A DNA stretch of 64,000 nucleotides from Hormiphora californensis. Its lineage: Eukaryota; Animalia; Ctenophora. Positions 2,978 through 49,645 of this stretch are shown piece by piece. A model generated the notes under the pieces. It was not told where the DNA came from, did no database searches, and was given only the letters and a program-made list of their open reading frames with translations. Positions within the stretch are counted from its first letter, which is position 1. Every line of letters starts with the position of its first letter. The position numbers and the translations under genes are program-made. Location: assembly GCA_020137815.1 (NCBI GenBank), contig CM035359.1, forward strand, positions 4,650,001 through 4,714,000, in the 5' to 3' direction.

Positions 2978-2978
<1 letters not shown>
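1760..2978 (-). mobile_element. 5'-truncated non-LTR retrotransposon (CR1/L2-like) ORF2 C-terminus and 3' UTR
   Basis: ORF 1978-2838 has LKSSSHPLKIETGRY...NRYCPWC...VETEEHALDHC, typical of the LINE ORF2 C-terminal CCHC region. It ends in an (AAAACCGTGTC)3 tail and is flanked by TG tracts. Confidence 0.8.
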
Positions 2979-3051
<73 letters not shown>

Positions 3052-23345: not shown

Positions 23346-25186
23346 ATGAAACGCTTAATACTGTGCCTCCTTCTTCTGGCGGCTATGACAGGGGCGTGGA
23401 GACGGCGGCGTAGAAGAAGGAGATCCTGTGTAAGAAACGGCGGTTGGAGTGGCTGGTATGACACTTCTGGCTGTATTTGTAACCACGCAACGGGCACAGG
23501 GTACATCTCTAGAGGACGGAGCTGCAACAGCCCCTCCCCTGCTTGTGGTGGGAGCTATTGTCCTGGGTCTTCGACATCCTCTAGGTACTGCAGCTGCTGT
23601 AGAACTGTCAATGGAGGATGGAGTGGTTGGAGATACACTTCTAGCTGTGTATGTAACCATGCTACCGGAACTGGATACCGCCCAAAGACAAGATCCTGCA
23701 CCAGTCCAGCCCCTACTGTGGGGATCAATGCTGCTCTGGTAGCTCAACTAGTAGAGACGACTGCTCCCAGCTGCTGTAAACTGTCAATGGAGATGTAGTG
23801 GTTGGAGCTAACTTCTAGCTGTGTCTGTAACCATGCTACCGGAACTGGCTACCGCCCAAAGACAAGATCCTGCACCAGTCCAGCGCCCTACGTGTGGGGA
23901 GCAAGCTGCTCTGGCAGCTCAACTAGTAAGAGACGACTGCTCCAGCATGCTGGCTAAACCATCCATGGAGGATGGAAGTGGTTTGGCTACACTTCTAGCT
24001 GTTGTCGTAACCATGCACCGGAACTGGCTCCGCCCAAAGCAAGATCCTGCACCAGTTCCAGCCCCCTACTGTGGGGGAGCAAGTGCTCTGGTAGCTCAAC
24101 TAGTAGAGGACACTGCTCCAGCAGCTGCTGTAAACTGTTCATGGAGGATGGAGTGGTTTTGGAGCTACACTCTAGCTGTGTATGTGACCATCTACCGGAA
24201 CTGGCTACCGCCCAAAGAAACATTCTGTACCAGTCCAACACCCTCCTGTGGGGGAGCAAGCTGCTCTGGCACTCAACTAGTTAGAGACGACTGCTCCAGC
24301 AGCTGCTGTAAACTGTCAATGGAGGATGGAGTGGTTGGAGCTACACTTCTATGCTGTGTAATGTGACCATGCTACCGGAACTGGCTACCCCGCCCAAAGG
24401 CAGGATCCTGCACCAGTCCAGCGCCCTACTGTGCGGACAAGCTGCTCTGGCAGCTCAACTAGTAGAGATCGACTGCTCCACAGCTGCTGTAAAACTGTCC
24501 ATGGGATGGAGTGGTTGGAGCTACACTCTACTGTGTATTGTACCAAGCTACCGGAACTGTACCTACCGCCAAAGGCAAATCCTGCACCAGTCCGCGCCCT
24601 ACTGTGGGGGAGCAAGCTGCTTCTGGCAGCTCAACTAGATAGAGACGACTGCTCCAGCAGCTTGCTGTAACATGTCAATGGAGGATGGATGTGGTTGGAG
24701 CTACTCTTCTGGCTGTGTATGTGACCAAGCTACCGGAACTGGCTACCGCCCAAAGAAACGATTCTGTACCTCCAGCCCATACTGTGGGGGAGCACGTTGC
24801 TCTGGCAGCTCACCTAGTAGAGACACTGCTCCAGCAGCTGCTTAAAACTGTCCTAGGAGGATGGAGTGGTTGGTTAACCATGGGTAACTGTTCCCTGTGA
24901 TATACCAGGAACCGGAACAAAGCTTCGAAATAGGACATTGCACCAGTCCAAGCCCTGCCTGTGGAGGAGAGACCCTGCAGTAGTGGTACGAGTGAGGGGT
25001 GGAGACCATGTCCTGTGACGATGAATGTTGTAAGACATCCATGGTGGCTGGACTGAGTGGGATAGTGGGCGTGCAACTGTGATTTCGAGACCGAGGAAGG
25101 TGTGACGGAACGAGAACGGGAGGTTCAACCCGACCCCCGCGTGCGGAGGTAAGACGTGCGAGGGTTATGCTAAAGAAAAACTATAA
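23346..25186 (+). CDS. Secreted thrombospondin type-1 repeat protein (frameshifted in this assembly)
   Basis: Signal peptide MKRLILCLLLLAAMTGA, then WR8, then ~60-aa repeats (NGGWSGW...C.C...R.RSC.SP.P.CGG..C.G). Many indels after ~23715; the terminus matches the clean copy at 50131-50322. Confidence 0.8.
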
Positions 25187-25305
25187 CTCTGAAGATTGGT
25201 CATGGATCGAATGGTGACCATTTGTAGCGTGTCAAAGACGATTTGTCAACAAAAAAAAGAAGAAAAAAAAGCAAAACTCTTTATACTTTTTCTAAGACGT
25301 TCTTG

Positions 25306-25512
25306 AGTAGTATAGAACTGGTGAACTGACGTCAAATTTTGATTGGCACGCTGTCAGAACTGGTTAATTGGCGTCACATTTTGATTGTCACGGTATCACA
25401 ACTGGTGAATTGGCGTCACGATTTTCACGATATCACAAGTGATGAATTGACGTCACAATTCTACTAATGCACAATACTGTAGTATGAGAGAGAAGGGGGA
25501 GGGGTGTAAATA
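25306..25512 (+). repeat. Left terminal inverted repeat
   Basis: Reverse complement of 48650-48834 apart from a few substitutions and ~22 extra bp; internal TGACGTCA/TGGCGTCA repeats. Confidence 0.95.
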
Positions 25513-27234: not shown

Positions 27235-28268
27235 ATGGATCGTTACACTGATCCAAATTCTCTGGTGCATTTACTGGACAAGAAGCATTTCGTCGTGCTC
27301 TAGGTAGGACCGGTAAGAAAAAAGTAAAAGAGTTTCTACAAGGAAATGACGCATATACTTTACACAAGCCAACGAGAAAACCTCGAAGATTCAGAAGAAT
27401 CTATACGTTGGGTATTAATTACCATTTTCAGGCAGATTTAGTAGACATGTCTATGTTTGCAAAAGAAAATAACGGATATAAGTGGATCTTAAATGTAATT
27501 GATACGTTCTCGAAAAAACTTTGGGCCTTTAAGATAAAGAACAAATCAGCTAAAAGTGTTTTAGATGCAATAAAACCTTTGCTTGAAAAATACAAACCGC
27601 AAAAGTTGGAAACAGATCTTGGTACAGAATTCAAAAATGAAAAATTACAAAAGTTTTTAAAAGAGCATAAAATTGATCATTATTCTGTTTCATCAGACCG
27701 GAAGTGTGCTATTGTTGAGCGCGTTAATCGAACTTTGAAAACTCGTATGTATAGAGCATTTACTGCTCAAGGTTCTCATCGTTGGATTGATATTTTAGAA
27801 GATTTGGTAGCTGGTTACAACGATACATATCATAGAACAATATAAATGAAACCGAATGAAGTAAACAAAAATTACGAAGAGGAAGTTCGCGAGAATCTCT
27901 TCCCCCCACTCCCAACCAGATCCCCTCCGAAGCTTAAAGAAGATGATTCCGTACGAATTACAAAAAAGAAAAACATTTTTGAAAAAGGTTATGAACGTAC
28001 ATGGAGCTTTGAAGTATTTTTCATTTCAAAAATCAGAAAAACAAATCCTGTAACGTATGCTATAAAAGACTATAAAGGTGAAGAAATTGAAGGCAGTTTT
28101 TATGAATCAGAAGTTCAGAAAGTTGACAAGTCAAAGGATATATATTTAGTCGAAAAAGTTGTTAAGAAAAGGAAAGTAAAAGGTAAAGTTGAGTATTTTG
28201 TGAAGTGGAAGGGATATTCGAGTGCAGCTAATAGTTGGATAAAGCATGAAGAACTATATGATCTATAA
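27235..28268 (+). CDS. int: Retroviral-like DDE integrase with C-terminal chromodomain (early frameshift and in-frame TAA at 27843)
   Basis: YTDP, YTLHKP, FQADLVDM, ETDLGTEF, IVERVNRTLK; chromodomain YLVEKVV...EYFVKWKGYSSAANSWI. Confidence 0.93.
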
Positions 28269-28870
28269 TGCCAATTAAATTCTTAGCTAACCATAATACA
28301 ATAGTTTATGGTCAAACTGGAGCAGGGAAAACGCAATTTATTTTGCGAGTAATTAGAGAACGTTTAATTGAACCCTTTCCAGAAAACATATTTTACATGT
28401 ATTCTGTTGAACAAGACTTTATGAAAGAACATGCTGAAATTACGTTTATCAAAGGATTGGATTTCTCACAGGTTGACACGAGTAAACCAAGTATGCTAGT
28501 TATAGATGATCTGTTGCTAAAACTCAATAAAGAAGTAGCTTCGTCATTTATTATGGGATCTCACCATCAAAAAATCAGTTTGTTTTTTATAACTCAGAAC
28601 CTTTTTCCAAATTGTGAAACCTTTCGAACAATGTCTGCAAATACTCATTACTACGTATTACTTTTTCAAAATCAACGCAATTTCCGACAAATTAATACAT
28701 TAGCACGTCAGGTTTTTGTTGGTAAAGATGTAAATCGAATTCTAGAAGCCTATAAAAGAGCCTGTCAATCACCTCGTGGCTTTATTTTGCTAAGTTTTTC
28801 CCCGCTACTCCCTAACGAGCTTACTGTCACTACAGACTACTGGCAGCCATGGTTAAGCGTGTACCTCTAA
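28268..28870 (+). CDS. A32/FtsK-like packaging ATPase
   Basis: Walker A GQTGAGKT, Walker B LVIDD, SHH..ISLFFITQNLF. Confidence 0.93.
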   Translation: MPIKFLANHNTIVYGQTGAGKTQFILRVIRERLIEPFPENIFYMYSVEQDFMKEHAEITFIKGLDFSQVDTSKPSMLVIDDLLLKLNKEVASSFIMGSHHQKISLFFITQNLFPNCETFRTMSANTHYYVLLFQNQRNFRQINTLARQVFVGKDVNRILEAYKRACQSPRGFILLSFSPLLPNELTVTTDYWQPWLSVYL

Positions 28871-29445: not shown

Positions 29446-29886
29446 TTATTTTGTAAAAATTAATTTGCAGATAGATACAATTTCATTTTTTTCATAATCA
29501 CTTAAAAAATCATCTACGCTTAGTCCTATAGAAAATATGTAAATAAAATGCATGCAATGTAGTCCACACCACGGAGTTTCGGGATGCTGCACAGTTATTG
29601 AGACATAATTACACTTTTTGAACTGGTCCGCCAAGTCTGCAAACGAGTGGGGGAAAGAAGCATCATATGGGGAACGGCCAAAGGAATCAAAAAAGAAAAT
29701 TTCATTGTTTTTTATAAACCAAACAACCCATTGTTCACCTTGCTCATGATGATTCTCTGTGTTACTGATGAAACAGTAATTTGTTTTTCTTGAGACTGGA
29801 ATTTTACAGGAAGGATATACTCCAAGAAAGTTTTTCTTGGTGTACAAGTTATCTTTTAAAATTGAGTTGAGCTTCCGAGCATTCAT
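29446..29886 (-). CDS. Adenain-like cysteine protease
   Basis: FLGVYP, ISNT...GEQWV, FFDSFG, VQ...WCGLHC; the expected catalytic His reads Gln. Confidence 0.9.
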   Translation of the reverse strand: MNARKLNSILKDNLYTKKNFLGVYPSCKIPVSRKTNYCFISNTENHHEQGEQWVVWFIKNNEIFFFDSFGRSPYDASFPHSFADLADQFKKCNYVSITVQHPETPWCGLHCMHFIYIFSIGLSVDDFLSDYEKNEIVSICKLIFTK

Positions 29887-31335
29887 TCGATAATTTCAAC
29901 CACGCGATCACCATTTATTTTCACCAATCTATCATACAATGCATAGATTATCAGAATGACATCCTTCTCAGGAGCAGATTCCAGTTCGATTTCCAAGTTT
30001 GTAGAACCAATTTTTTCGGGGCTTAAGTAGCCATGCTGTGTCTTTCCGATTCTGTCTGGCTTCAAACTAATTCCAACCATAAAGTTTGATTGAAAATTGT
30101 ACTATTTATGAGACAAGATCCTTTTTCAGAAATTCCAATACTGGAATAAAGCTGCTGCAAAAACCTACTTTCGTTATCATAAATTAGTTTTCCGTTGCTG
30201 GTAAAGGGTTTAGTTGTTAATGGATCAGAAAAATATGGTCTACCATCAACATGGAGCTGGAACCGTGTGAACGGGAGGAACGAAAAGGGGTTTCCCTTCA
30301 AATCACCCTGGAAATGATCTGTATACTGTAGACAGAAAAAAGCATGATGGGGAAGCTTGTTATCAGTAAACAAATTGTTGAGTTTTATATACTGACCATT
30401 ATCGCCAATTGGTTTTACTATCAACTCTGGTTTGGGATGTAAAACGATGCTGCTTCTTTCGCTAATCGTTCTTCAATCAAGCTTAAAAAAATCGGCGAAG
30501 GTTTCAAAAACGTGGTCTTCAGAAACACATCAGTTATAACAAGTGAATTACCGTTATCTGTGTTTTCCATAAGGATAAAAGAATCTTGATTCTTTGTTAG
30601 TGTAATTCGCATATTTAAATTAGAGGTAGAGCTTTATGTGAGTTTAATAGCGGACAGTGGAGCTTAGCTGTTGATGTAAATGGATTGAACAGTGCACGTC
30701 TCCTCTCGATACCAGCCTTATTTGACGCAAGTTTAAGTTTTCTCTGTGCTCTTCTTTCATCTGCTGCTATTTGTTCTGCAGATCTAGTTTCACCTCCACC
30801 TTCACCTTCTCCTCCAGTTACTTGGTCGGGTATAACATCTTCTTCGAAATCCAGACCAGCAAGAGTTGTATCATCTGAGTCCTCTTTTGTTAAACCAGTG
30901 TCCAACACAAAGTTTTGTGTTTTTTTCAAATAGTCTAAGCGGTTTGGATCTGTGTTAAATATTGTATTGAAGTATGTTGTGTAGGCATAACTGTTACGCA
31001 TAGATTGCATAATATCAGTCCGATCGGAGATATTTACTTCCACCATTCCCCATATTGCATTCGCTATATTATTAATGACAGTAATTTGATTTGCTACTGA
31101 CACACGCCTCTCCACTGCTGCTTTGAAGTTTAAAAGTTGTAACAACATCTATATTCGATAGCATTCCTTGTGGCTGTGGTGGAATGACAAAAGTTGTGGG
31201 ACCATATTTTGAAATTGTGTCTCTTGGGTAGATTTTCAGTTCGTAACAGTCTTCAATGGATACGTTTGAGGAAGGTTTATCCCACAGAAGCAGTTCGTTT
31301 GACAGAGCTTCGGGACTCTCTGTAAACGTCCTCAT
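29883..31335 (-). CDS. Major capsid protein (double jelly-roll), split over five ORFs by frameshifts
   Basis: N-terminal NELLLWDKPSSNVSIED..ELKIYP, internal GDLKGNPFSF, C-terminal IIYALYDRLVKINGDRVV; expected size and position. Confidence 0.85.
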
Positions 31336-31627
31336 AGTCTACCTTTCTTTGGAAAGGGTCGGTTTCGAGTGTTTACACGTCTCTTTCTGTTAGAATTCGC
31401 TATAGCGTTTGTGGTGTGCTCTACTGCTTTAGATGTTAGCCCTTTTATAGCCTCAGCGGCAAGGGGGGCAACTATTGGTAAAGCACCCGTAGCAATGAAG
31501 AAAAAAACGAACCTATCCCCTCACCTTCTTGGTTGTACACATAATAACCATCTCTATCTAACCCTTTACCATGTTGCATCATGATTCGGCGGTAAGAAGG
31601 TGTGTTTTTAAATGTAACAGTCTCCAT
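31332..31627 (-). CDS. Small QxGxG-motif virion protein with amphipathic helix (one frameshift; absent from the ORF track)
   Basis: Manual translation METVTF...MMQHGKG...NQEGEGIGSFFSSLLR/GALPIVAPLAA...RKRRVNTRNRPFPKKGRL; the stop overlaps the MCP ATG. Confidence 0.7.
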
Positions 31628-32135
31628 AATTAATTGCTATAAGATTCATTCCCCTTTTATAGTTGAGCAATGTCAAGTGTAACAACAGTATCAAAGAAAC
31701 TAAAAAAAGAACAAGCTCACCTTTTAAATTTCTAATTGAAACTTCAAGATAAGCGAACTGATTTACATCCAACTTTGCATACGAAGGTTTTTCCCATTCA
31801 AAATGACAATACTTATCATCATGTTTCAATGGCGCAACGGCTAGCAATCTCGATTTCATTCCATTCAGAAAATTCCATTCTACAACATTTAGGTAAATAA
31901 ATCCTATCGTTATTTCTGTCTGATCAATAACTTCTGATTTAACAAGTGTCTTGTTAAAAAAAGACAATATTCCATCTTCATCATATGTAGCATCCAGCGC
32001 CTTAGGTAGTTCAACAAGTTCAATACCTTCCCCTAATTTAATATTATATTGAGTAGTAACACCAACTCTTTCAAATATCAAAAAAACAGAATCACTCAAT
32101 TTCAAGTTAAGAGCAACATTTTCAACATCTTTCAT
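31608..32135 (-). CDS. Minor capsid protein (penton)
   Basis: GFIYLNVVE...LNGMKSRLL...FEWEKPSYAKL...FAYLEVSIRNLKGELV matches the Polinton penton C-terminal pattern. Confidence 0.8.
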   Translation of the reverse strand: MKDVENVALNLKLSDSVFLIFERVGVTTQYNIKLGEGIELVELPKALDATYDEDGILSFFNKTLVKSEVIDQTEITIGFIYLNVVEWNFLNGMKSRLLAVAPLKHDDKYCHFEWEKPSYAKLDVNQFAYLEVSIRNLKGELVLFLVSLILLLHLTLLNYKRGMNLIAINYGDCYI

Positions 32136-33042: not shown

Positions 33043-33495
33043 ATGGCTGCTCAGTTTACAGACATGTGGATCAGCTCCGTTATTGGACATCTATTTGAAA
33101 AAGTTGTGGATGCAACAGTGAAGAATTGCCCGGGACATCGATTCAAGTGTGTGGTGCTTCATCGCTGTCAACAACTCTCACTCTTTGATAAACTAGTAAT
33201 GCACTTTGAATCAGCAAAATCAGAAATTATTGAGGAACTCCCAAAAATATTTGAGGTGCATGCCAAACTATTTAGCTGTGACCCCAGCCAAAAATCAGGG
33301 ATGATTTCTTTTGCTGTAAATTATCTACGAGTCGCAACACCCGAATCGATATATTTTGGAAAGGTATACAAAGAACAATATGAAGTCTTTATACAAGAAG
33401 AAGAGAAATCTAAGAAGAAAAAGAGAAAGACTGTACCTGTCACAGATCCTGTTGGTCAGGCATTTAATCAAACATTTGACTCTTACATCTTTTAA
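33043..33495 (+). CDS. Polinton hypothetical protein, 150 aa, Cys/His cluster and NLS-like KSKKKKRK
   Basis: Intact ORF convergent with polB. Confidence 0.65.
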   Translation: MAAQFTDMWISSVIGHLFEKVVDATVKNCPGHRFKCVVLHRCQQLSLFDKLVMHFESAKSEIIEELPKIFEVHAKLFSCDPSQKSGMISFAVNYLRVATPESIYFGKVYKEQYEVFIQEEEKSKKKKRKTVPVTDPVGQAFNQTFDSYIF

Positions 33496-33544
33496 TTTGA
33501 TTTGTACAAATTTAAAATCATTTATCTAATTTGAGAAAAAGTGT

Positions 33545-36500
33545 TTAATTATTTCTAAAATGCCCATGCGGACGAGTTGAAACTCCATCACTCAAAATAA
33601 ATCGCTTGTCATCATACCTAGTGAGTCCTACTTTACAACTGTCGACAGTAAAAATTGTATGTAAAAATGAACGAAACGAGGTTTGACGTATCATATAATC
33701 CTCCTGATCTCTCTCACCCAGTAAAACTTGACGATACAGATCATGTGTCAGTTTTTTAGCAACATACTTTTTTACACCAGCTGCAGTGTTTTTTTGTTCG
33801 CCCTCAACTGTCAATAAACTGTACATTTTAGAACGTAAACCCACAAACTCTGATATTGGTATGCCATGGGTTTCGTCTTTAAATTTACCGACTACTGCCT
33901 TATTTTCCACTGAATGCAGTGGATGGTGTTTTTCATAATTGCTAAAATCAAAGAACCCTTTCAACTCACTCAGTTGTCCATATAAATCCTCTGTTTCAAT
34001 ATAGTACAAAAAGCTGTCTGTATCTGTAAAGCAAAGCACGCTCCTCGGAAATGATGGTTTAATTACGTCGTAGTGGAACCGATACATCAAAAGCTTCGAG
34101 AGCTCCAAAACTGTGAAACCAACCTAAAAAAACTAGTTTTAGAGAAAATTTGTAGAAAATACTTGCATACTTTTTGTTAAATGCAGCACATACTTACATA
34201 AATTGGTTTGTTCAAAACAATGTTCGTTTGAGTGAGTTCAACTCCCACTAAATTTTCATCAAAGATAGAAAATCGTTTGTATGTTGGTTTTGAATGCTGC
34301 CAGTTTGCGCTTTTTGTGTTGTTCACGAGAACAATTTTGATTCTGTTGCGGAGATTTTCCATAGTTTTACCTGAGAATAAAAGAATTTGATAAACAAAGT
34401 TAATTGTTTTCCTAAATAACTTACCAAAAAACGCGTTATTGAGAAGTTTGTAGTAATCTTTTTCAAATGCATCCTGAGCATTCTGTCGCAATTTGGTGTT
34501 TTCAGAAATGTAAGGTTCAATCCATGCCTTTTGACGAAATGATATCGCACGATGAACTTTGGTTAGAATAACACCATTCATCAAATAAAACTGCAAGTTT
34601 CGAACATGCACCACATATTTCAGTTTTGGAAACAAGTTTGGTGCGAGTTTTTTATTTGAAAATTTTAGTGTTGCTCCCCGTAATTCACGAATTTCCCTGA
34701 AAGGTTTTTTTTTTTTTTTTTTTTTTTGTAAGTAAATGAATTTCAGAAATATCTGTCCTTAACTTACGCTGATTTGGGTGAAATCATAGACTCCTTAATT
34801 ATCAAAGGGTTGGGACAAAGTGGATAGTCAGATGTAGAGTCATGAATGCTTTCAGGAATTTCAATATCAACTTCAAATATTAATCCTATATTTGACTCTG
34901 CGTCGAATTCCAGTATTTCTTTAGATGACCAAGAACTACAATCTTCCCATTTAAATCTGTCCATTGGAACTTTTTGAGACATTGCATATCCATAAAGGTT
35001 CTGAAACATTTTTTGGTCATAATTAGTTAGGTTTTTGAAATTTAAATACATACATTTGCATCCAAGTAAATAAGGTAGCTTTCTGGTTTCGAGGGATCAA
35101 AGGAAGTGAGTGGGTTGTTAGCGACAGCATGACGATGTGATATTACGGATATTCCTCCCCTGATACCACTCTCAATCATTTGGAGCATATCCATATCTTT
35201 TAAAATTTGGAGTCTTGTACTGGTTAGTTTAAGACAAGCATCATATGTAAGACTAGGAAGCGAGATATAGTGGAGAGGTTCCAAACCCATTCTGTTCCAG
35301 CACATTTCTCTATATCGCTCCATAACATCAGCTAATAGCAGAACATCTGTTATTACGTACCTGTGAATAGTTTTGTCTTGGTATAGATTACACTAGTGAG
35401 CATAAAATACTTACAAGTTGTGTAGGTCTCCCAAATTTGCCAGATTAAATTCACTCCAAACAGTCTTTACGTGACAAAAATCTTTGTCGGAAAGTTCTTC
35501 ATCCGTAAGATCGTTATAAAAGGCCTCTTTTGAGGGTAAGGACTCCTCAAACTTTTTCACACTGTCAATGTAACTATAAGGATACACCCCTTTTCGACTC
35601 AAAAGTTCGAGTTTGTTGTTGCATCCAGAATAAAATTTGTCGATAAATTCCTTAAGATTTTCTAGTCTTTGAAAACCATCTTTTGTGAGGTTTGAAACCA
35701 GCTTATCGAGGGAAGCAGACAAATGTTGTGCTGAGTCAATAAACCTGGAAAAAAACTTTAAAGATGGGAAGGTAAAATTGAATTAAATACTTACCTAAAT
35801 TTTCCTGATGAAACGCTAGAGTATTTTTCCATACTATTAGGAATAATACGGATTAAACTCATGTCATCTTCATGCTTAGCCAACGCTCTTATCACCATAT
35901 GAACATCATACGAACTGAAAAAAATATTCGCTTTAGTTGCTGTAGGTAAATTATCGTATATTAGTCTTACCGAAAATTATGGAACACAATAGGTAAGCGT
36001 GTATCCATCTGTCTCTCTAGGTTGCATCTGCTGTGTGCAGCACCAATATAGCTACCAGTGTAGTGGCAATGATCACGCACTTTTTTAAGGTGTTTTGTGT
36101 TTTGAAACCTTTCGTTACACAAGTAACACATTTTGCTATTAATGAAACTCTTTTTCTGCTCCGACGACAGCGGTTTGATTGGTTCGTCAGCTTCTAAGAG
36201 TGGTCGCAACCGTTCATACTCCTCATACATAAACAAAATAAAGGTCTCTTCAACATCATTGATACCATCATCTCTCCATACAATGACATCTTTTTTATAT
36301 TCTTCATATTCTGTAACTACTTTGTAAGCGAATCCACAAGCCCTGTGTTTTCTTGTTTTTGTTGTGACTGCTTCTATGTTACCAGTGTCCTCAAGATATG
36401 CCTCAAAATCTGAAAAAAATATGGTCATGATAGCAGAACTCAATACTTTAAATTCTTACTACATACCAGCTACGATGTATGCAGGACATTTAATCATCTT

Positions 36501-38089
36501 TCTGTAGCTTTTAAAGAAAATGAAGTCATCGGATGGAAATTTACAGCCTTGGACTCGGAACTTAACACAGTTTGGTTCGTGTTGTAAAAGCAAGTCATAT
36601 CTGGTAAAGCCATGAAAACACCTGAAAGTATTTATTTTTAGATTATTGTTCTAATCATGTGTATTATATACGTACCGTGCGCAATGAAATTTTTGTCTAT
36701 TGGTGTTTGACTTCCTCAGTAGGGTATCGATACACTTTACAAGTACATAGTGTGAAGATTGTTCGCCTGCAAGCAACAGTACAGTAACCAATGTTTGTTC
36801 AATATCAGTGCTTGAGCTGACACTAACTGGATAAAACTCCTTCTTTTCTTCGTCATATCCAATAACGTTGATGCGTACACTATAAGAAAAGAAATGTCAC
36901 AACATCATCTACCCAACTTGAATTCAACATACTTGTTTAAGCGTTCAAATTTAGGAATTTGTTGTAGGGGTACAGGATAGTCAATACCATCTGATATGAT
37001 CTCATTTTCAAACTGTTTATAGTATGTCACTCTGTTTGCATTTTTATCATTGTAGGGATATGGATGTTTTGCAGCTAACACACACCACTTTAGACACCTG
37101 AAACGTAAAAAGTTTTTGATTTTTAAATTATTAGATATATAAAAATAAACTTACTGAAAGTCTTTGTTTTTGATGTTTAGTATACATCTCTTTGCTTTAC
37201 ATGCTGCAGGAAGTGGGTGATAACATCCTCCCACTAGCGGGTTGTACTTTGTTATGTTTATATGCAGATTTGAAAGTTTGTCCAATCGCCAACCTGATCC
37301 TGAAAATTATCTATTATAATATAGTACTTGGAGATTTTGAAATGACTCATAAAAATAAATATTACCATTTCGAACAAATTCTTCTATACGCGAGTAAATA
37401 GTAGAGAGCTGCTGATCAACTGCATCTTCAATTTTTGTAGAAAGCAACACTGAAGTTATTTCACCACGAAAATAGACACAATCCTCCTTGAATTCATCAG
37501 TTGCTTTATTCATGGTACCATAAACGGAAATATGGAAACGAAATGATTTTAACAGATCTTGTTGCAATCTAAAGTAAAGAGTGATTAGGTAAGGGTTATT
37601 TAGAACATTTTGAGCGTCTTTACCTTAGTATCTCAACGATCCTTGGTATTTCCTGCTGTAGAGATGGGACAAGTTCTCCTTGTAAAATATCTGGTAGCTC
37701 AATAATTCGAAAATTGTCCCCAAGTGCACTTGATATCACTTTTCCAGATCTACGTTTTACCAAACAGCGTCGTTTTGCCAAAGAACAGTTATTGTTGTAA
37801 TGATATTGTCTAGCTGATCCAGTTGGAAACTTTATTCCACAGCGATCACAGGGGTAACTAAAAATAAATTTTATATAATTAAGTTACATAGATACAATAT
37901 ATTTATGTATATTTACTTTTTCCTACTGCAATTAATTAGGTGATTGTCGAGTTCATCGCCTGTTAAGTCCAATAATGTTTCACATGTAGGACAGAAACAT
38001 CCATCGCCACAACAGCTTTCAAGATGATTTCGCAAATTGTAATAGTTCGTAGTTTGTTCACATTTTGGACATTTTATCTTTCTAACCAT
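33545..38089 (-). CDS. polB: Protein-primed DNA polymerase B, 15 exons, 1243 aa
   Basis: Exons 38089-37917, 37857-37624, 37568-37366, 37299-37155, 37097-36933, 36879-36676, 36621-36467, 36409-35971, 35914-35795, 35744-35415, 35360-35054, 35000-34768, 34696-34425, 34370-34198, 34123-33545 (3732 nt). Splicing restores NGSGW, VADFE, HNFRSYD, RKGVYPY, YVITD, YLDANNLYG, KLLNNAFFGKTMEN and FTDTDS. Confidence 0.93.
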
Positions 38090-38247
38090 GCTAGAGATTT
38101 TGAAAGGGTAAAACTTAGGTTAATGTTATAAAGATACACTATTTTTACACAAAAAAACGACTTTAAATTATTAAAATAAATCATAATCATATTAAGCAGT
38201 CCTATATATCTCTTGGTGGTTGTAGAATAGTGTTGGACCTATTTTGC

Positions 38248-38616
38248 TCATTCTTCACTCGCAATTGCCTGAAAAAATTGTTTTGATTGAAAATAGGAAA
38301 TTTTAAAATACCTACAAATATAGTTGAGGGGTAAAAATACTTACAATTATAGTTGAGGGATAACCCTCCCGCTCCATGAGTACAAGTGACAAAATAGCTT
38401 TCCCTACCATAGAGAGCAGCTGGGGAAACAATGGGGCATCAAAACATACAAGGTTACCAACATCTGATTTCATAGATCTGAAATAATTGGGAACTTAAGC
38501 GAAAGAAAATAATATACTCACATAAATTTTGGAAATACTTACAAGTATTCCCTGGGGTTGGATGACTTTGTCTTTTTTTTAATTGCAGAAACTATAAAGA
38601 CGTCGGTAACAGCCAT
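38248..38616 (-). CDS. 3-exon 75-aa protein, OB-fold/SSB candidate (paralog 1)
   Basis: Exons 38616-38543, 38477-38345, 38268-38248: MAVTDVFIVSAIKKKTKSSNPREYLSMKSDVGNLVCFDAPLFPQLLSMVGKAILSLVLMEREGYPSTIIAIASEE. Confidence 0.75.
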
Positions 38617-38760
38617 AGCTAAGATATAGAGGATTTTAACAGTGTTTAAAATTTTTTTTAAATTCAAGCTCCATTTAATTAATATAACAATGTATTGTAC
38701 TAAAGTAACATCTTCACATTTTCAAACTCATGCAACAATTCATTTTTCTTCTTCCCTGGT

Positions 38761-39136
38761 TCACTCTTGACTGAGAACTGCCTGATAGGATAAAATGCAG
38801 TGTTAAAAAAAACAAGTGTTAAATAAATTCGAACTTACAACGAAGTAATACTACTAATGTGAAAAAATAATTCGAACTTACAATTATAGAATCTGGGTAA
38901 TCGTCTTTTTTCAATATTACTACCGTTGCTAGTTCTCCCTCTCTCAATTCATCAAAAATGTTGCTGTCAAACGATACAAGGTTTCCAATGTCCGTTTTAA
39001 CTTTCCTGAGGACAAAAATTTTTTTAAAAAAAATACAAATCCTGTGAAAAATATCAACTTACAAATAATCACGAGGAGTTGAGGTCTTGGTTTTCCTGGT
39101 TTCAATCTTAACAATAAAAATTTCTGCTACTGGCAT
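38761..39136 (-). CDS. 3-exon 72-aa protein, OB-fold/SSB candidate (paralog 2)
   Basis: Exons 39136-39063, 39005-38882, 38781-38761: MPVAEIFIVKIETRKTKTSTPRDYLKVKTDIGNLVSFDSNIFDELREGELATVVILKKDDYPDSIIAVLSQE; same intron positions as paralog 1. Confidence 0.75.
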
Positions 39137-39221
39137 TGCTAGGTTTTCAAAAGGGGGTTAATAGCACTACAAAAATGTGAAACGAAACAGAAAAACACAA
39201 TTTGAGAAATTAATAATGATA

Positions 39222-39511
39222 CTAGCGTGTGTTTGATGCAGTGTCTCCTTTAATTAAATTTAGTAATACAAGAACAATGTTCATTCGCTCTTGAAGCAAG
39301 CTCTCGTGACGCCGCAAACTTGAAGACCTTATTCGATAATTGTGAAGGTATTCTTGCGTCACACGAAGTGCATCCAGGTGTTCATGTATTAAAGTGTTAC
39401 TGAGGAAAGGGGTGTTATAAATAATTGTTATTTTATAGAAGAACTGTAGTAAAATTATACTCACGTTCTATCTTCTTCCTCATAGTCACTCTCACTATCA
39501 CTGATGTTCAT
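39222..39511 (-). CDS. 2-exon 74-aa acidic/helical protein
   Basis: Exons 39511-39465, 39399-39222: MNISDSESDYEEEDRTNTLIHEHLDAL...LLQERMNIVLVLLNLIK. Confidence 0.62.
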
Positions 39512-39589
39512 TGCAAACTAATAAAAATTAAATGGTCAATTGAGCTGATAAAAACAAACAAAACCAGAATGTAAAAACAAGAAATTAAT

Positions 39590-39842
39590 TTAACAAAATC
39601 TATAGTCTTCATTGCATATCAATTCCACAAGATCGGTTACTAATTCCCATCGTTCTGTTAATAACTGCTGGAAATGCTCTTGATTGCTCGCACCAAATAA
39701 CTGTCCATGGGTGCGCCCGAGTTGGTTAATTAGGTCAACAATTCGATCGTTCCTGAAATTTTTCATTATAAATTATATCATGATTTAAAGAAATTGTTGT
39801 TACTTACATAGCGTCCACATCATAATCTTCGCTTGTGTGCAT
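39590..39842 (-). CDS. 2-exon 65-aa helical protein, likely paralog of 39222-39511
   Basis: Exons 39842-39808, 39752-39590: MHTSEDYDVDAMNDRIVDLINQL...LLTERWELVTDLVELIC. Confidence 0.62.
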
Positions 39843-39938
39843 ATTGTGCTAAGGAATTAAAGTAAGGTTAGAATACAGTGTCGCAAAAATCATGATCATT
39901 TCTTCTGCTCGATTCTAGTTGACGTTTCAGCTCGTATA

Positions 39939-40520
39939 ATGTGTGTTTTGATATTATTAGACGGTGTTAATTTGAGAAGTGGGTTCATTCCCCGAGAAGT
40001 TGTTATAGCATTTCGCTCATTTGGAGTTATCAGAGTTCGTCAATATTTCTTATCACCGAAACCGTACCTATCACTGACAGAAAATGATAAAGAAACTGAT
40101 TGGTGAGTCAAAAAAACAAATTTTCATAATTTTTAAAAAAAAAAATCGCTACCTATCATCACAGGTATACGAAGCATGTGTTGAAAGCAACTGGATTGTT
40201 TGAGTCGATCGATTGCGCATTACCATACAACACAGTATTAGAAATTATCGCTTGTCAAAGAGAGAACGAAGTTATTACATATGGTTCTACATCATTGCGG
40301 TAAGTTTTGAAATTCTGTGAAGTATTTTTCAAATTTTCAGTATATTTTTTCAAATTTCAGATTCCTCCATCAAATGGGATTTACAAACGTGCGCGATATA
40401 AGTGGAGCTTTTCCTGTTCAACCTACGCAAAGCTGTGGTGAAATGCATTCTCCAATTTTCTGCCCGTGGGCAAAGTATGAACTTTTGCTTCCTAAACTTG
40501 TTGATGCTAATTTGTTATAA
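39939..40520 (+). CDS. 3-exon 152-aa Polinton accessory protein, possibly a degenerate exonuclease-like fold
   Basis: Exons 39939-40102, 40165-40299, 40361-40520 join in frame: MCVLILLDGVNLRSGFIPREV...SPKPYLSL...ITYG...SCGEMHSPIFCP. Confidence 0.68.
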
Positions 40521-40932
40521 CTGTAGAAGCTATGAGCATGATTATGCATACATGTATAATATACAACAAATAATTAAACACTTCATTTCAGAATTATCTT
40601 GAATCAAACTAAAAATAAAATAAATGTAAAAATAAAATATAGTCGGATTTTTTGAAGTTGTCACCCCCTGGGTGGTGGATATTTTAATTAGCACGCCAGA
40701 AACTTTTTTATTTAAAATTTTTTTTCTGGGTCTCATACCTTTGTTTCTTGACCAATTATTTAAACAAAAAAACTTTACGAACTCACAAAATTATGCTCTT
40801 TCCGATGATAGGTGGCTTTTTTGTCGAAACGTAAGAGCAAATGGTGACTCTCATGACATTTCACAAACAAATATGGCGCTGAGTTTGAAAAGGGTTGTGA
40901 CAATTTCAAATTATCCGACTTTACACTTTTCC

Positions 40933-41555
40933 TTAATTAATTTCCTTCATTTTCTTTAAAAATTCTATTCCATCGTTTATCGCATCGTCAATTAAGGCTC
41001 TTTTTCTTTTTAAATCATCTATTGATTTTTTCATTGAAAGCTGAAAATATGATTAATTTAGTTAATAAATTTGAAAAAAGAAGAAGAAAAAAATATGTGT
41101 ATTGATACAAATTAAACTTACATGTATATCGGATGCATTATCACAGTCGGTTTTCTGCGTCTTACGTACATATTTCCTGAAAAATATTGGTTAAGTCTTT
41201 TTTCATTATTTACAAAGATCAACAATATCATAACAGTAGTATCGTACTTTACCTTTTTGGAGGAACTTGTGCTGTTTCCTCCTCACTTATTTCGTTTTCT
41301 TCTAACGTTTCCTGAAATAATTTTTGATGTTAAGGATAGATAGTTTGTTGGATAAATTTATAAAATACAATTCACAACATTCTTACACTTGTCAGACTCA
41401 TCCCTTTATTCCTCTCATTTTGACTTGTTTTTGGTATCTTGAATCTGAGATTAATTTTGTGTTAATAAAATATTAATATTTACAATAAAAATTACGAGTT
41501 TTACTTACTTATTTACGATTGGTAAACGGGAATTCTTTAACATTGCTGTTGCCAT
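40933..41555 (-). CDS. 5-exon charged protein with NLS-like PPKRKY
   Basis: Four short GT-AG introns; exons join in frame from MATAMLKNSRLP to FLKKMKEIN. Confidence 0.6.
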
Positions 41556-41689
41556 GACTACAGCTAAGAAAAATTGAAAGTGGTTAGTGTTATGGTAATA
41601 AAACTATTGTAACAAAATAAAACGGTTCATTTGGTTTTGAATAAATTGTTTAATTGGTCACACAAGTAGAAATAAAATTTTATTTGCTA

Positions 41690-43173
41690 ATTGGTCATTC
41701 AAGTAGAAGTCAATTGGTTGTTTCAAGTATAAACCAATTGACTTCTACTTGAATATTCATTGGTGGCTCCTGCAGAACCAAGTGAATTGGTTCTGCAGGA
41801 GCACAGGTCCCTACAGGACATAAAAAGATTGCTCCCGTAGGGACAATTACTGCACATGCAGAAGAGTTCGGATTCTCCAACATATTTGAAATATCAAATA
41901 CAGTTAATTGGTCATTCAAGTAGAAGTCAATTGGTTAGGTCAAGTATAAACCAATTGACTTCTACTTGAAGATTAATTGGTGGCTCCTGCAGACCAAGTA
42001 AATCGGTTCTGCAGGAGCACAGGTCCCTACAGGGCTAAAAAAAGATTGCTTCCGTAGGGACAAATACTGCAGATGCAGAAGAGTTTTGCTTCCAATTCTG
42101 ACTAGGACAAGAAAATCCGCAGGGTTCTGCAGGAGCACTTTACGCTCCCAACATATCTTTTGATCATCCACACTTCTCAGAACATCTCGTGGCGATCAAT
42201 AACCTGAATTGAAAGATATGGTTAGAACTAGCTACGTCCAAACTAAATTATCAACAGCAAAGTCGAAACATGTACCACAACAGAAAATTTACCTTTACAT
42301 GGGTGGATTCGTTGAACTTGAAAAAAGGTTGTCTTTAAAACCATATGACATTCTATGTGGGAATATGTTGGTTACATTTGTGGAGGGGAGGACTATTTTG
42401 CTATAATTAGAGGAAAATTAGCGAACTTTGTACACGAAAAAATTTCAAAATAAAAGTATACATTATATAAAAAAATTGTCCAATCTCCAAATAATCTGAG
42501 CTGCTCTAGCTTCTCTGTCTGTTTTCTAGTACTGAAAAACGTGATATTGGTTAGTTTTTTGAAATATGAATATATGTATTAATTTTTCAATAAATATGTC
42601 GTTGAGAAATAATCTTTATAAAACTTACTCTTTTGCCGAAGTTTTCTTATTTTTTGAACCTTTTGAAATTTCAGCTCTATTTCCTCTAACACTTTCAGCT
42701 CTTGTTTGAGCAAGAGCTCCTCTCTATTTGCCTGAAAAAGTTTTAGATTGGAAAATCTTCCTAAAAACAAAACAGAAAATCAGATTCTACTTAGTGATAT
42801 ACGTACCTTTTTCACCTTTTTGGGAAGTTTCCCCAACACAATCTCCTGTTGTTTTCTGCATCGCTTGCAGCGTTTCTGAAGGAGTGGTATGTTAGCACAA
42901 AAAATCTTGGATAGATATAAATTGAAGGTATATTTTAACTTACTGGGGTACCGTTCTTGAAAACAACCACTGGCAGCTCACATTCTATCGTGCACTGAAA
43001 GTTATGAATTTGAGTGGTTGTCAAAAAATATGTGCTATCTGTTATGATATCTTAATTGATATTCTAGAAATAATAAATTCAATACTTACTTTTGGTTGTT
43101 GAGGTTTAGGGACAGTGTTGTTGTTGTTGTTGTTGTTGAGGGCATTCTCAAATGTTGAGTCTAATTTGTACAT
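41690..43173 (-). CDS. Multi-exon hypothetical protein (Cys cluster, coiled coil, duplicated 3' exons); 3' end uncertain
   Basis: Starts MYKLDSTFENALNNNNNN; exons CTIECELP, KRCKRCRKQQ, ANREELLLKQEL bounded by GTAAG/TTTCAG; ~215-bp duplication at 41690-42085. Confidence 0.45.
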
Positions 43174-43397
43174 AGCTATGTCTATAGAGAGAGAGAGAGC
43201 TGTGAGAGGTTAATTAGAAAATACTCAAACTTATGAAATTTGAGATTGGGGCAATAGGGGATAAGGAAACTTCAGAGAGGTTGTTGATGACTAATTAAAC
43301 TAAATTAAAAAAATTCAAATATTAATTAAAATGTCCCTAAAATCTGGAAGTGGGATCCAGGGATCCAGGGAGAGGGATCTCACCAATCAAGGAGGGT

Positions 43398-43979
43398 TTA
43401 CACCTGGGAGGGGATGTACCCGCATGCTACTAGTAGCACCTTTTTATGGGCATCCCCTTCCTGGTGCTCCCTCCTTGATTGGTGAGAGGTGTGCCTGACA
43501 TCACACCATCTGCACACCATTGCATCATCTTCCGGCATGTCCGAACCTGAAAAATGACCTAGTTAGATTGAATTAAGATTTGTAGCTACAATTTAGAATG
43601 AAAATCAAAAGCAGAACTTACAATAATGGGAGAAAATCAGTCGCCGCCAGAATCGGCGGTCTCCCTGCCATATGACCGGATATAGCTCCCGCCAGTTGCT
43701 TGGGAGGGTCTGGGGGGTCCGGTCAAGGACTGGCAGGGAGACCGAGGCCTCTCCAACAACATCGAGGGTCAAGACACCACTTTTATCTGAAAATATTTTG
43801 AGTGTAAGAATTCTGAAAGTTTAAAAGATTTAGATAATCATCCAAATGATTTAAAACAACTAGTTACCTTTGTTCTTTTGATGCTTTTTCCCCCCGATGT
43901 GTTGAAGGGCCTGCTTCCAATTCTGCCTAGGGCAGACAAACCCGCAGGGGCCACAGGTAAGAACTTGTACTTGGTCCAT
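43398..43979 (-). CDS. 3-exon 141-aa protein with two U1/matrin/JAZ-type zinc fingers
   Basis: Exons 43979-43868, 43786-43622, 43546-43398; CGPCGF...QHIGGKKH and CRWCDV...EHQEGDAH. Confidence 0.72.
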
Positions 43980-44096
43980 AGCTATAGAGAGAGAGAGAGA
44001 TGAGAGATGATAATTAGGAAGAGACTCATAGTTATGAGATTGGGGTAATAGGGGATAAGGAAACTTCAGAGAGGTTGTTGATAGGTTATATATATA

Positions 44097-44269
44097 CAGT
44101 CGGACCTCGATTGAACGACCCACGATTTAGTAACACCCCGATTTAACGGCAGCATAATCTTCCCCCCGATATAGAAAATTAACAGTATTTGACCCCGATT
44201 TAGCGGACACCTCGAGTTAACAGACAAAACCATTTCCCTCAAGGGTGGCGTTAAATCGGGGTCCGACTG
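44097..44269. mobile_element. Tc1/mariner-like MITE nested in the Polinton
   Basis: TA|CAGTCGGAC...GTCCGACTG|TA. Confidence 0.85.
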
Positions 44270-44399
44270 TATATAATACATATATTAAATAAAATATAAT
44301 TCGTCTCCTCTGCGTCACTTTGTCATTGTCAACCTAGGGAGAGGATGTTAGGAACAGGTAACTTCCAAAACACATCATAACTCACGAGTTTAATCTAGC

Positions 44400-45029
44400 G
44401 GTTAAAACATCAATTTGTTCCTGTAACACCTGACAGCTGGTTCGGAGGCGATCAGTTTCCTGAAACGATGTATAGATTAGATTCTAAATTAACTAGAGTG
44501 TCGATATTACCTTCGAAGAATTTCCAGGTGTACATTCCAGCCATTCAGCCCACGAGCTAGTCTGGATGGGGTTAGTTTCCTGAAAAGATGTTAGATCAGA
44601 AACCAACTCAGAAGAATATATCATTCACTCCAAGGGTTCAATAGATCAATAGTTTGGTAACCCCCCTATATACAGAACGACGCCATACAGACCGGGTTAG
44701 GGTTAGTCTGTATGACGTTGTTCTGTATGTAGGGGGGATTCCAATATATTACCTCTGTGATTCCCAAAGACGGGAAATTTTTAGGGTCATTAGCTGGTGG
44801 GGGTTTAATCCAGCCAGCCTGATCCATCTGAACTGCTTCAGTTGGCGTGGGCGTGGGAGGAGGTAAAACAATTTGTTGCCCGGTCGCATTCTGATGTGGA
44901 GAACCTGGTGCATATGCAAATTAGAATTAAATTTTGAAAAAAAAATCTGATAACCTTACCCCAACAGATGCTTTGACCAAGTTTAATTCGCATGTTCCTC
45001 CCTCTGCCGTCTCTTAACTTCTTTCCCAT
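44400..45029 (-). CDS. Multi-exon hypothetical protein; 3' end uncertain
   Basis: MGKKLRDGRGRNMRIKLGQSICW|GSPHQNATGQQIVLPPPTPTP... with GTAAG/CAG junctions. Confidence 0.45.
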
Positions 45030-45843
45030 AGCTAGGTACAGAAGGTGATGGTGAGGCAGGGGTTTCGGATAGAGCGGTATAGGGCAGGGAGAAATAAACA
45101 AGTCAAATGAATTCTAAATGTGTTATCCTGGTCCAATCTGGTCAACAAAAAAACCTCTTGACGGTCACCTGAAATCTGAAAAAAAATGAAAAAAAAAGAG
45201 CACTGTGAGAGATATTTACCTGTTATAACACGCATAGCTCGTATCTTACCTGTGGTATCATTGTTATTGTAAATTGAGAGAGGAGAAAGAGGGAGGGAAA
45301 GAGAGAGGGGAGAGAGCGTGTAAGAAACAGTGAGAGAAAGAGTGAGAGAGCGAGAGAGAGAGAAAGGGTGAGGGCCTGGTGCATATGCAAATTAGAATTA
45401 AATTTTGAAAAAAAATCTGATAACCTTACCCCAACAGATGCTTTGACCAAGTTTAATTCGCATGTTCCTCCCTCTGCCGTCTCTTAACTTCTTTCCCATA
45501 GCTAGGTACAGAAGGTGATGGTGAGGCAGGGGTTTCGGATAGAGCGGTATAGGGCAGGGAGAAATAAACAAGTCAAATGAATTCTAAATGTGTTATCCTG
45601 GTCCAATCTGGTCAACAAAAAAACCTCTTGACGGTCACCTGAAATCTGAAAAAAATGAAAAAAAAGAGCACTGTGAGAGATATTTACCTGTTATAACACG
45701 CATAGCTCGTATCTTACCTGTGGTATCATTGTTATTGTAAATTGAGAGAGGAGAAAGAGGGAGGGAAAGAGAGAGGGGAGAGAGCGTGTAAGAAACAGTG
45801 AGAGAAAGAGTGAGAGAGCGAGAGAGAGAGAAAGGGTGAGGGC
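44904..45843. repeat. ~471-bp near-identical tandem duplication
   Basis: Units start at 44904 and 45375. Confidence 0.9.
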
Positions 45844-47171: not shown

Positions 47172-47271
47172 AAAGTGAACTTTAGTGATACTATATTCTC
47201 TTAGTATCCCGATCAGATCATTATATCTAGATACCTTTCCCCTGTAAGTGTTGCATATCATATATGATATA

Positions 47272-47444
47272 CAGTCGGACCCCGATTTAACGGCCCCCGA
47301 TTTAGCGGCACCCCGATTTAACGGCAGCATAATCTTCCCCCGATATAGGAAAATAACAGTATTTGAAACCCGATTTAGCGGACACCCCGATTTAACGGAC
47401 AAAACCCTTTCCCCCGAGGATGCCGTTAAATCGGGGTCCGACTG
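47272..47444. mobile_element. Tc1/mariner-like MITE nested in the Polinton
   Basis: TA|CAGTCGGACCCCGATTTAAC...GTTAAATCGGGGTCCGACTG|TA. Confidence 0.88.
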
Positions 47445-47516
47445 TATATATCTATTATGATTCTCCCTGAAAACGAAGTTTGGCCCATTTATCTTTTCGT
47501 TTAAGCTCATTCCTCC

Positions 47517-48649: not shown

Positions 48650-48834
48650 TATTTACAACCCTCCCCCTTCTCTCTCATACTACAGTATTGTGTATTAGTA
48701 GAATTGTGACTTGTAATATCGTGACGCCAATTCACCAGTTGTGATACCGTGACAATCAAAATGTGACGTCAATTAACCAGTTCTGACAGCGTGCCAATCA
48801 AAATTTGACGTCAGTTCACCAGTTCTATACTACT
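48650..48834 (-). repeat. Right terminal inverted repeat
   Basis: Ends ...CAGTTCTATACTACT followed by TTCTTG. Confidence 0.95.
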
Positions 48835-49645
48835 TTCTTGGTTGTGATTCTTGGTTGTGTGGTGTGGTGTGTTTGTACTTGTGCAGTTTAATGACGTAAT
48901 GTGTTATTTGTTTTCTCTCTCTCTTTAGACCATGGCTGTTTTCTAGCTACATATATATCAATTCGCTTTCAGCTCCAGACAATTGTATAAACCATATAAG
49001 TTACCTAGTTTGAGTCACATTTTGATTTGGTTAGTGTTAGGTGTGGAGGTTGCTGTTAGGTTTGGAGGTTGGTGTTAGGTGTGGAGGTTGCTGTTAGGTG
49101 TGGAGGTTGCTGTTAGGTGTGGAGGTTGCTGTTAGGTGTGGAGGTTCGGTCACGTGATCGCAGATGTCGTTCGCATCTCGGTTTACCAGGAGTTTCCCAG
49201 CTGCAAACTGTCGTCCGTTTCCAATCTGATGTCAGTTTCCAATTTGTAACGGCATCACATAATTCCCTATGAAAAATATAAAACAGTTATCCAGTGTGTA
49301 CTTTAGGGCCCGGACTTTGCCGTGTTGAACCTGTCAGAGCATTGGCCTGACCCATTCTCGTTTCTCTCAGTCTCAAATATGGAGCGCGCGATAACTGTGG
49401 TCAGAGCATTGGCCTGGCAGTGCTGAACTGATACCGTATTCTCACTACAACCACCCATCATGTCAATGACTAAATTCTATACTTTGGTAATGAAATTAGT
49501 AATTACCCCTCCGCGTTATAATGACTCACATATGCAATAAAAGGGGTGACTTTGTAACCAATTCTATACTAAAATATAAATATCATGGTAGTTAAATCAT
49601 ACTGGGCTGAATATTGCCAATAAGTAGTAGTATTCAAAATTCCAG

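Follow-up and report, generated by a model that had tools for sequence, protein, structure and literature searches.

Polinton DNA polymerase genes were expected to be single long open reading frames (ORFs), and the question raised here is whether such a gene can be carried by an animal as a gene interrupted by spliceosomal introns, and by what route such introns would be acquired and kept. The locus in question is from the ctenophore Hormiphora californensis (assembly GCA_020137815.1, contig CM035359.1, positions 4,650,001 to 4,714,000 of the forward strand); these 64,000 nucleotides are called the window, and all positions given below are positions of the window. A sequence-only reading of the locus had described a Polinton protein-primed family B DNA polymerase gene (pPolB) split by 14 short GT-AG introns and had taken it to represent an intron-rich lineage, which ORF-based screens would mistake for a decayed fossil. 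The answer obtained is that the predicted introns are inherited and are not damage. The explanation preferred, with a probability of roughly 0.8, is a resident Polinton of which the polymerase arm would be expressed as host-like genes with nuclear splicing, the introns being kept since DNA is copied to DNA.

Introns and spliced frame of the polymerase gene

The introns were searched for without homology by dynamic programming, in which every GT..AG gap of 45-90 nt was considered, and exactly 14 introns were found on the minus strand between the ATG at 38089 and the stop at 33545. Their lengths (50-74 nt) sum to 813 nt and the remaining frame of 3732 nt consists of 1243 codons and the stop, so that the intron number, the intron sizes and the stop-free frame described earlier were all reproduced. 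In a chance control, spliced frames reached at most 147 aa when the region was shuffled 20 times, and 70 aa on the opposite strand; the scoring model was trained on the polymerase gene itself, and the lengths are thus a fair control and the scores are not. Spliced alignment with homologous polymerase proteins, which had been proposed as a check, was performed with an aligner written for this analysis. The same introns were recovered with the continuous database homologues P0009 (52% identity) and P0011 (46% identity), 14 of 14 in each case, and all introns in range were recovered with P0021 and P0073 (13 of 13 and 12 of 12, respectively), with zero stops and zero frameshifts in the four alignments. 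The Mnemiopsis leidyi gene model P0013 gave just nine exact introns, because this model itself skips part of the gene.

The GC content is 24.1% in the introns and 37.0% in the exons. The donors are GTAAGT in six introns and GTATGT in three (9 of 14 together), and the acceptors end in CAG in 11 and in TTTCAG in eight of the 14; in their GT-AG ends, donor consensus and pyrimidine-rich acceptor, the introns agree with the U2 type. An in-frame stop is carried by 13 of them, and the remaining one (34424-34371, 54 nt) is in frame and stop-free, as had been noticed before. The junctions within or beside catalytic motifs were found again at the Exo I Asp codon, Exo II, Exo III, motif A and motif B (introns 7, 8, 10, 11 and 13, respectively), and motif C (FTDTDS) is unsplit by any intron; the motifs are named as in family B polymerases. 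Exon 11 matched PF03175 weakly (E 0.002, below the cut-off), and the full-length homologues P0011 and P0021, which carry PF03175, were aligned along the gene at 41-52%. A sequence search of solved structures with P0009 gave no match. One run taken as RNA contained a single 49-nt match to the gene at less than 90% identity and is uninformative either way. A 58-nt GT..AG segment (38091-38148) ends one base before the polymerase ATG, and it is possible that this segment is a 15th, 5'-untranslated intron or a trans-splice acceptor.

The pattern of the introns was described by four tests, which were picked after the data had been seen and are descriptive: the downstream exon starts with GT at 6 of 14 introns against 5% expected (p 5e-5), a proto-splice signature; the 12 junctions tested sit in better-conserved columns of 44 long homologues (0.57 against 0.41 by chance, p about 0.001); exon sizes are more even than random (coefficient of variation 0.48 against 0.91, p 0.0025); and phase 2 is found in 9 of 14 introns (p 0.017 against equal phases). 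TAA is the first full codon on retention in seven of the nine phase-2 introns. No evidence indicates a function for the putative placement of introns within catalytic motifs. No introner family was recognised among the 14 introns, which share at most AT-rich matches of 10-14 nt.

Inheritance, constraint and breadth

At 33403-37001 (3.6 kb), a contig that bears a second species label is about 92% identical to the window. All of its indels, among the 12 of 15 listed, are in introns, at 11 places, and the introns constitute 16.7% of the span (p about 3e-9). In the last exon of this contig, 27 substitutions (among the 40 of 286 listed) were found, with 19 at third, eight at first and none at second codon positions. 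A contig of another sample, under the window's own species label, has zero substitutions over 3950 nt. The predicted exons are shown to be under constraint.

Comparison of intron positions in relatives, also proposed earlier, was carried out chiefly with L071, a 13.9-kb marine metagenomic contig that carries a Polinton whose genes are arranged as in the window element, and with its near twin L070. The polymerase protein of L071 is 59% identical to that of the window, and its gene has 15 introns of 87-211 nt. Among the 13 comparable window introns, ten have an L071 intron at the identical position and phase and one (intron 8) has an intron one base off, and the hypergeometric p of the shared positions is below 1e-9 even with 5% of sites usable. 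The sequences of introns at shared positions resemble each other no more than those of other intron pairs. It is shown by these alignments that the position of the predicted introns is conserved and their sequence is not. Four L071 introns are without a window counterpart and window introns 13 and 14 are without an L071 counterpart, which implies that gain and loss of introns are ongoing.

In a tree of exons 13-15 (39 rows chosen from 79), a clade of 13 rows with 96/95 support was formed by the window, L070/L071, the Mnemiopsis leidyi model, which is the best named polymerase match, and nine C-terminal database fragments. None of these nine fragments (339-396 aa) starts before the position of intron 12, and some include acceptor-like read-in; P0001-P0007 and P0010 begin at or after exon 13, and the shorter matches P0302-P0304, of which the metagenomic P0303 is 97% identical, stop where intron 8 or an L071 intron lies. 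The fragments begin or end at intron positions, and therefore gene callers fragment the polymerase gene, as the sequence-only reading had expected of ORF-based screens. Its claim of an intron-rich lineage also stood; the positions shared with L070/L071, the indels confined to introns and the supported clade speak for an intron-bearing lineage rather than one odd copy. P0013 departs from the polymerase near intron 4, continues with a piece of hAT transposase and re-enters at intron 7, and it is without 14 aa that start at an L071 intron position; these gaps are an indirect sign that the same introns may be present in the Mnemiopsis leidyi genome. The predicted introns were likely gained long ago, probably in a lineage tied to ctenophores, and have likely been inherited since.

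For the breadth of the phenomenon, 171 relatives were obtained by a metagenome scan and 80 were kept, seven were added by a viral scan with an alignment query, and the resulting 87 loci were aligned, stop-free in-frame gaps in other loci being counted as coding insertions. The seven viral-scan loci are distant and have no frame-disrupting intron, and no match was obtained when viral contigs were scanned with either the last exon or the L071 capsid. Of the 45 loci that span 800 or more reference residues, 37 are without a frame-disrupting gap, in agreement with the expectation that Polinton pPolB genes are usually intron-free. A frame-disrupting GT/GC-AG gap was found in 15 of the 87 loci and convincing introns in 11; L054, L073, L075 and L076, which have multiple breaks and weak sites, were taken to be decayed and set aside. 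Nine of the 11 are outside the clade: L001, L024/L034, L030/L039/L055/L058 and L050 have introns at other positions, and the distant L023 has one match, to intron 13. At reference position 1061, one AG/GT site has an intron in both L024/L034 and L030/L039/L055/L058, two separate clades, which is likely a parallel gain. Polinton polymerases have probably acquired introns on more than one occasion, in part by parallel gains.

Table 1. Features of the Polinton and of its polymerase gene (positions of the window)
Feature	Positions	Strand	Remarks
Target-site duplication, left	25300..25305	+	6 bp, TTCTTG
Left terminal inverted repeat	25306..25512	+	Begins AGTAGT; 120 nt 98% identical with 48715-48834; 207 columns at 87% with one long gap
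Integrase, retroviral type, with C-terminal chromodomain	27235..28268	+	rve E 2e-14, Chromo E 9e-11; intron-free
Packaging ATPase (A32/IVa2-like)	28268..28870	+	Adeno_IVa2 E 7e-5; single open frame, intron-free
Adenovirus-type cysteine protease	29446..29886	-	Peptidase_C5 E 0.004; single open frame, intron-free
Major capsid protein gene	29883..31335	-	Intron-free; aligns end to end with L071 protein (in pieces)
Minor capsid (penton) candidate	31608..32135	-	Weak match to L071 gene at the same place (E 4e-5); no Pfam match; unconfirmed
Intron-free ORF, function unassigned	33043..33495	+	Weak L071 homologue
Protein-primed family B DNA polymerase gene	33545..38089	-	15 exons, 1243 aa predicted; zinc-finger-like N-terminus; endonuclease VII-like domain in exon 8
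Intron 1	37858..37916	-	59 nt, phase 2; beyond the part covered by L071
Intron 2	37569..37623	-	55 nt, phase 2; position common to L071
Intron 3	37300..37365	-	66 nt, phase 1; position common to L071
Intron 4	37098..37154	-	57 nt, phase 2; position common to L071
Intron 5	36880..36932	-	53 nt, phase 2; position common to L071
Intron 6	36622..36675	-	54 nt, phase 2; position common to L070/L071
Intron 7	36410..36466	-	57 nt, phase 1; cuts Exo I Asp codon; position common to L070/L071
Intron 8	35915..35970	-	56 nt, phase 2; in Exo II; L070/L071 counterpart one base further on
Intron 9	35745..35794	-	50 nt, phase 2; position common to L070/L071
Intron 10	35361..35414	-	54 nt, phase 2; at Exo III; position common to L070/L071
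Intron 11	35001..35053	-	53 nt, phase 0; in motif A; position common to L070/L071
Intron 12	34697..34767	-	71 nt, phase 2; position common to L070/L071; database fragments start just 3' of it
Intron 13	34371..34424	-	54 nt, phase 1; motif B; not in L071; in distant L023; in-frame insert in P0008
Intron 14	34124..34197	-	74 nt, phase 0; not in L071; in-frame insert there in P0008
Arm of about eight small predicted genes	38248..44827	-	Most with 1-4 short GT-AG introns; ab initio
Three-exon predicted gene	39939..40520	+	Introns 40103-40164 and 40300-40360; weak N-terminal match to an intron-free L071 ORF
Right terminal inverted repeat	48650..48834	-	Ends ACTACT
Target-site duplication, right	48835..48840	+	6 bp, TTCTTG, exact match to the left copy

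The Polinton, its intron-free genes and the rival explanations

The predicted polymerase gene sits in a whole Polinton of 23.5 kb (25306-48834), which is the low-GC block between the terminal inverted repeats; the repeats with their AG-start ends, the 6-bp target duplication, and the pPolB, integrase, ATPase, protease and capsid genes are those by which Polintons are recognised. The terminal repeats with 98% identity, the exact 6-bp duplication and the substitution-free contig of another sample are indirect signs of recent mobility, to which the 97%-identical metagenomic fragment P0303 can be added. The ATPase and the protease have homologues in L071 and L047. The intact capsid homologue of L071 was predicted to be a double jelly roll (predicted local distance difference test score of the model, 95), and its model matched the capsids of PBCV-1, iridovirus, Sputnik and mavirus (E about 1e-15); Pfam gave no match for the capsid or for the small upstream genes. 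An acidic, glycine-rich coding loop is found in the capsid near 30740-30860, where several relatives have insertions of 22-70 aa; a capsid alignment gap of 81-117 nt was considered as an intron and rejected, being the open acidic loop common to P0173 and others.

In the assembled copy, the integrase gene is interrupted by an early stop codon (27843-27845) and by a break of the frame near 27250, and the capsid gene has four frame breaks near 31100, 30620, 30430 and 30100. The contigs of every one of four short-read runs differ from the window at the integrase stop, and single-base indels at each capsid break were found in at least one short-read contig (among the 12 of 50 indels listed). The integrase and capsid breaks are copy-specific damage or assembly errors.

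The introns are unevenly spread. The capsid, protease, ATPase and integrase genes of the window have no intron, with about 20 expected over 5.2 kb at the density of the polymerase gene, and the capsid, protease and ATPase genes of L071 are likewise single frames without an intron. The L071 integrase has one 89-nt GT-AG intron (10439-10527) at the second catalytic Asp, which is not present in the window integrase. Upstream of the polymerase gene, introns are predicted in most of the small genes; those at 38616-38248 and 39136-38714 are apparent paralogues with the first intron at the same place, and that at 41555-40933 has four introns, all by ab initio prediction. An atlas search with an upstream exon gave scores all below 0.8.

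On this arm, TAG occurs at most 13 nt before the ATG at 8 of 10 predicted starts, against 15% of all ATGs of the element and, with the integrase start set aside, 1 of 10 correctly placed starts of the intron-free half. The TAG sites of the arm score weakly as cis acceptors and are mostly without a donor in range. Trans-spliced leaders are common on ctenophore mRNAs (PMC8527503), and, as a post-hoc lead, the sites may be trans-splice acceptors.

By the preferred explanation, host polymerase II would transcribe the resident copy in the nucleus, and splicing of the transcript would yield the 1243-aa protein-primed polymerase. Polintons copy DNA to DNA with no reverse-transcription step, and because of this a gained intron would be passed to every daughter copy and would not be purged. 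Gains would probably have occurred at proto-splice sites held constant by the conserved motifs, and gained introns would be tolerated because failed splicing would lead to an early stop and then to clearance by nonsense-mediated decay (NMD). Phase-2 donors give an immediate stop, and NMD has been proposed to let new introns establish (PMC2809761). The virion genes would be intron-free most likely through late burst expression from replicated DNA, whereas the genes of the polymerase arm would be expressed from the resident copy in the manner of ordinary host genes. As a lead for the selective force, HUSH-type silencing of long intronless transcripts, described in human cells (PMC8770142), could be considered, and it would leave the introns in the short upstream genes unexplained.

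Several points weigh against this explanation. Removal of the introns by the host spliceosome is deduced from the DNA sequence and is no more than likely. A branch-point-like motif is present in 8 of 14 window introns against 6.2 in shuffles (p 0.24), which is no clear enrichment, and in 13 of 15 introns of L071 (p 0.0002); the stop-free intron 13 breaks a strict NMD rule. P0008 shares introns 13 and 14 but is placed outside the clade, beyond eight continuous-looking rows, and at some shared positions introns may have been gained in parallel, or they may have been lost from the continuous-looking rows. The integrase and capsid genes of the window copy are broken as assembled, and the identity of the host, by sequence probably a ctenophore, depends on the single match of a flanking gene to 'sb/3462823' (see below). 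The early/late reason for the intron-free virion genes is put forward as the most likely one on a precedent, the punuivirus (see below), and the L071 integrase intron counts against it. Finally, between the window and L071 the identity is 30% for the capsid and 59% for the polymerase, and the modules may differ in history.

The last point belongs to the rival that survives best, according to which the introns are real and inherited and their uneven spread results from exchange of modules, an old intron-rich replication arm having been combined with newer virion modules from intron-free relatives, with no difference in expression. We consider this a fair alternative, though a less likely one. 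In one run, 151 contigs of varied identity were found on the structural module against nine on the polymerase region, and contigs become unlike the window at 32918, 33403 and 37001, as exchange would have it. However, two elements with very different capsids are both without introns in capsid, protease and ATPase and have 14-15 in the polymerase, and close capsid relatives are often whole continuous proteins (P0152, P0154-P0156, P0158-P0162), whereas close polymerase relatives are fragments.

It is improbable that the polymerase gained its introns as a domesticated, immobile host gene and was later re-mobilised, or that the present copy is domesticated. The terminal repeats and the target duplication are fresh, the L071 polymerase likewise belongs to a Polinton of this layout, the introns of distant Polinton polymerases lie elsewhere in the gene, and the short-read contigs without the integrase stop and with indels at the capsid breaks imply that the family need not be broken; these observations stand against the host-gene-like evenness of the exon sizes, the intact state of the polymerase beside the broken integrase and capsid, and the intron-bearing, host-derived cargo of nematode Mavericks (10.1101/2022.07.12.499685). 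It is scarcely credible that introner transposons or decay placed the segments recently in a single resident copy that had already integrated, a course that fits about 90% of the tested cases of dinoflagellate eupolintoviral introners (PMC12166617), since the 14 introns share only the short AT-rich matches given above, their positions and not their sequences are common to a 59%-identical relative, the exons are constrained and the printed L070/L071 junctions give no sign of misalignment.

Neighbouring DNA, known systems and implications

In the right arm of the Polinton, a 470-nt tandem pair (44904-45843, 99%), a 182-nt pair (41688-42085, 92%) that contains palindromes and a duplicated start of a gene (43163-43288 with 43962-44082, 81%) were observed. 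Short inverted-repeat elements with a 16-nt repeat unit are present in the Polinton (44087-44275 and 47261-47450) and in host DNA (8220-8451), and are probably host miniature inverted-repeat transposable elements, nested in the Polinton in the former cases. The Polinton is located between two copies (23346-25175 and 49624-50322) of a gene for a secreted cysteine-rich repeat protein, which has a WRRRRRRRR stretch after the signal peptide and no Pfam match, and of which the left copy has many frame breaks; judged by eye, this protein is thrombospondin-like. A host gene like those of G-protein-coupled receptors (50774-52844, minus strand) has a long C-terminal tail and two frames, and is 88% identical to EukProt 'sb/3462823', an identifier of a format that we presume to be that of the Pleurobrachia bachei gene models. 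At 1978-3099, the C-terminal part of a reverse transcriptase frame resembling those of long interspersed nuclear elements was seen by eye, with no Pfam match.

For comparison with known systems, adenoviruses, a related lineage, also produce their protein-primed polymerase by nuclear splicing, from the E2 unit. There, leader segments are spliced onto a polymerase reading frame that is mostly uninterrupted, and the catalytic core is not divided into 15 exons. Polintons/Mavericks of vertebrates and nematodes (eupolintoviruses, adintoviruses) likewise have terminal inverted repeats, a 6-bp target duplication and two gene modules, with the pPolB, rve integrase, ATPase, protease and double-jelly-roll capsid also found in the window element (PMC8097293, 10.1101/2022.07.12.499685, PMC10748475, PMC8502044). 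In PMC8097293, intact Mavericks were defined by intronless ORFs and no introns were seen, in contrast to the 14 introns of the window pPolB; intronless core genes are there a descriptive and not a defining trait, from which the window pPolB departs. Nematode Mavericks are reported to have intronless core genes and introns in cargo genes only (10.1101/2022.07.12.499685), whereas the window has introns in the core polymerase.

Dinoflagellate eupolintoviral elements also carry spliceosomal introns in Polinton-type elements (PMC12166617). Their introners are repeated transposon families, mostly post-integration and depleted in coding regions, whereas the window introns are non-repetitive, old and positionally conserved, and every one of them interrupts a core gene of an animal element. 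The punuivirus of Chlamydomonas (10.64898/2026.10.09.758095), an integrated DNA virus with introns in latency genes and not in virion genes, is a precedent for a split design; it is a giant nucleocytovirus in which 61 of 506 genes have introns (2.5 per gene), verified by RNA, and the window element is a 23.5-kb Polinton with 14 predicted replicase introns. Intron-rich mirusviruses (PMC12768974) resemble the window in having many short GT-AG introns in core genes, which were read as a sign of nuclear life, but they belong to another realm, and their introns, which often code for endonucleases, are concentrated in the virion genes, opposite to the distribution in the window. No published report of inherited spliceosomal introns in a Polinton polymerase was found, and Repbase entries, subscription journals and supplements may contain cases. 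As far as the literature searched reaches, such introns are new, while dinoflagellate introners, intron-rich mirusviruses and the punuivirus were already known, and the first Polinton architecture of a ctenophore would be described here.

A wider idea, which is offered tentatively and more as a speculation than as an expectation, is that ctenophore Polintons are still-mobile two-part viruses with a host-style early arm, in which the small spliced genes and the 15-exon polymerase form a single operon-like or alternatively spliced unit (the TAG sites before the predicted starts would fit spliced-leader trans-splicing), and an intron-free late virion module; that the introns would let them pass as self and tie replication to hosts with matching splicing; and that such lineages arose several times in animals, with a large hidden diversity filed as dead by ORF screens.

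In Maverick surveys, intact elements are those with intronless ORFs and long insertions are taken as decay (PMC8097293), a rule by which working lineages can be discarded, and the counts of live Polintons and of their hosts may be too low. Nuclear, spliceosome-dependent expression is implied, which bears on the site and mode of Polinton replication and on the range of hosts. The polymerase gene, ancestrally without introns, has acquired 14-15 of them, with turnover, in one clade and different sets in others, and would be a compact test case for the origin of introns with respect to proto-splice sites, phase and NMD.

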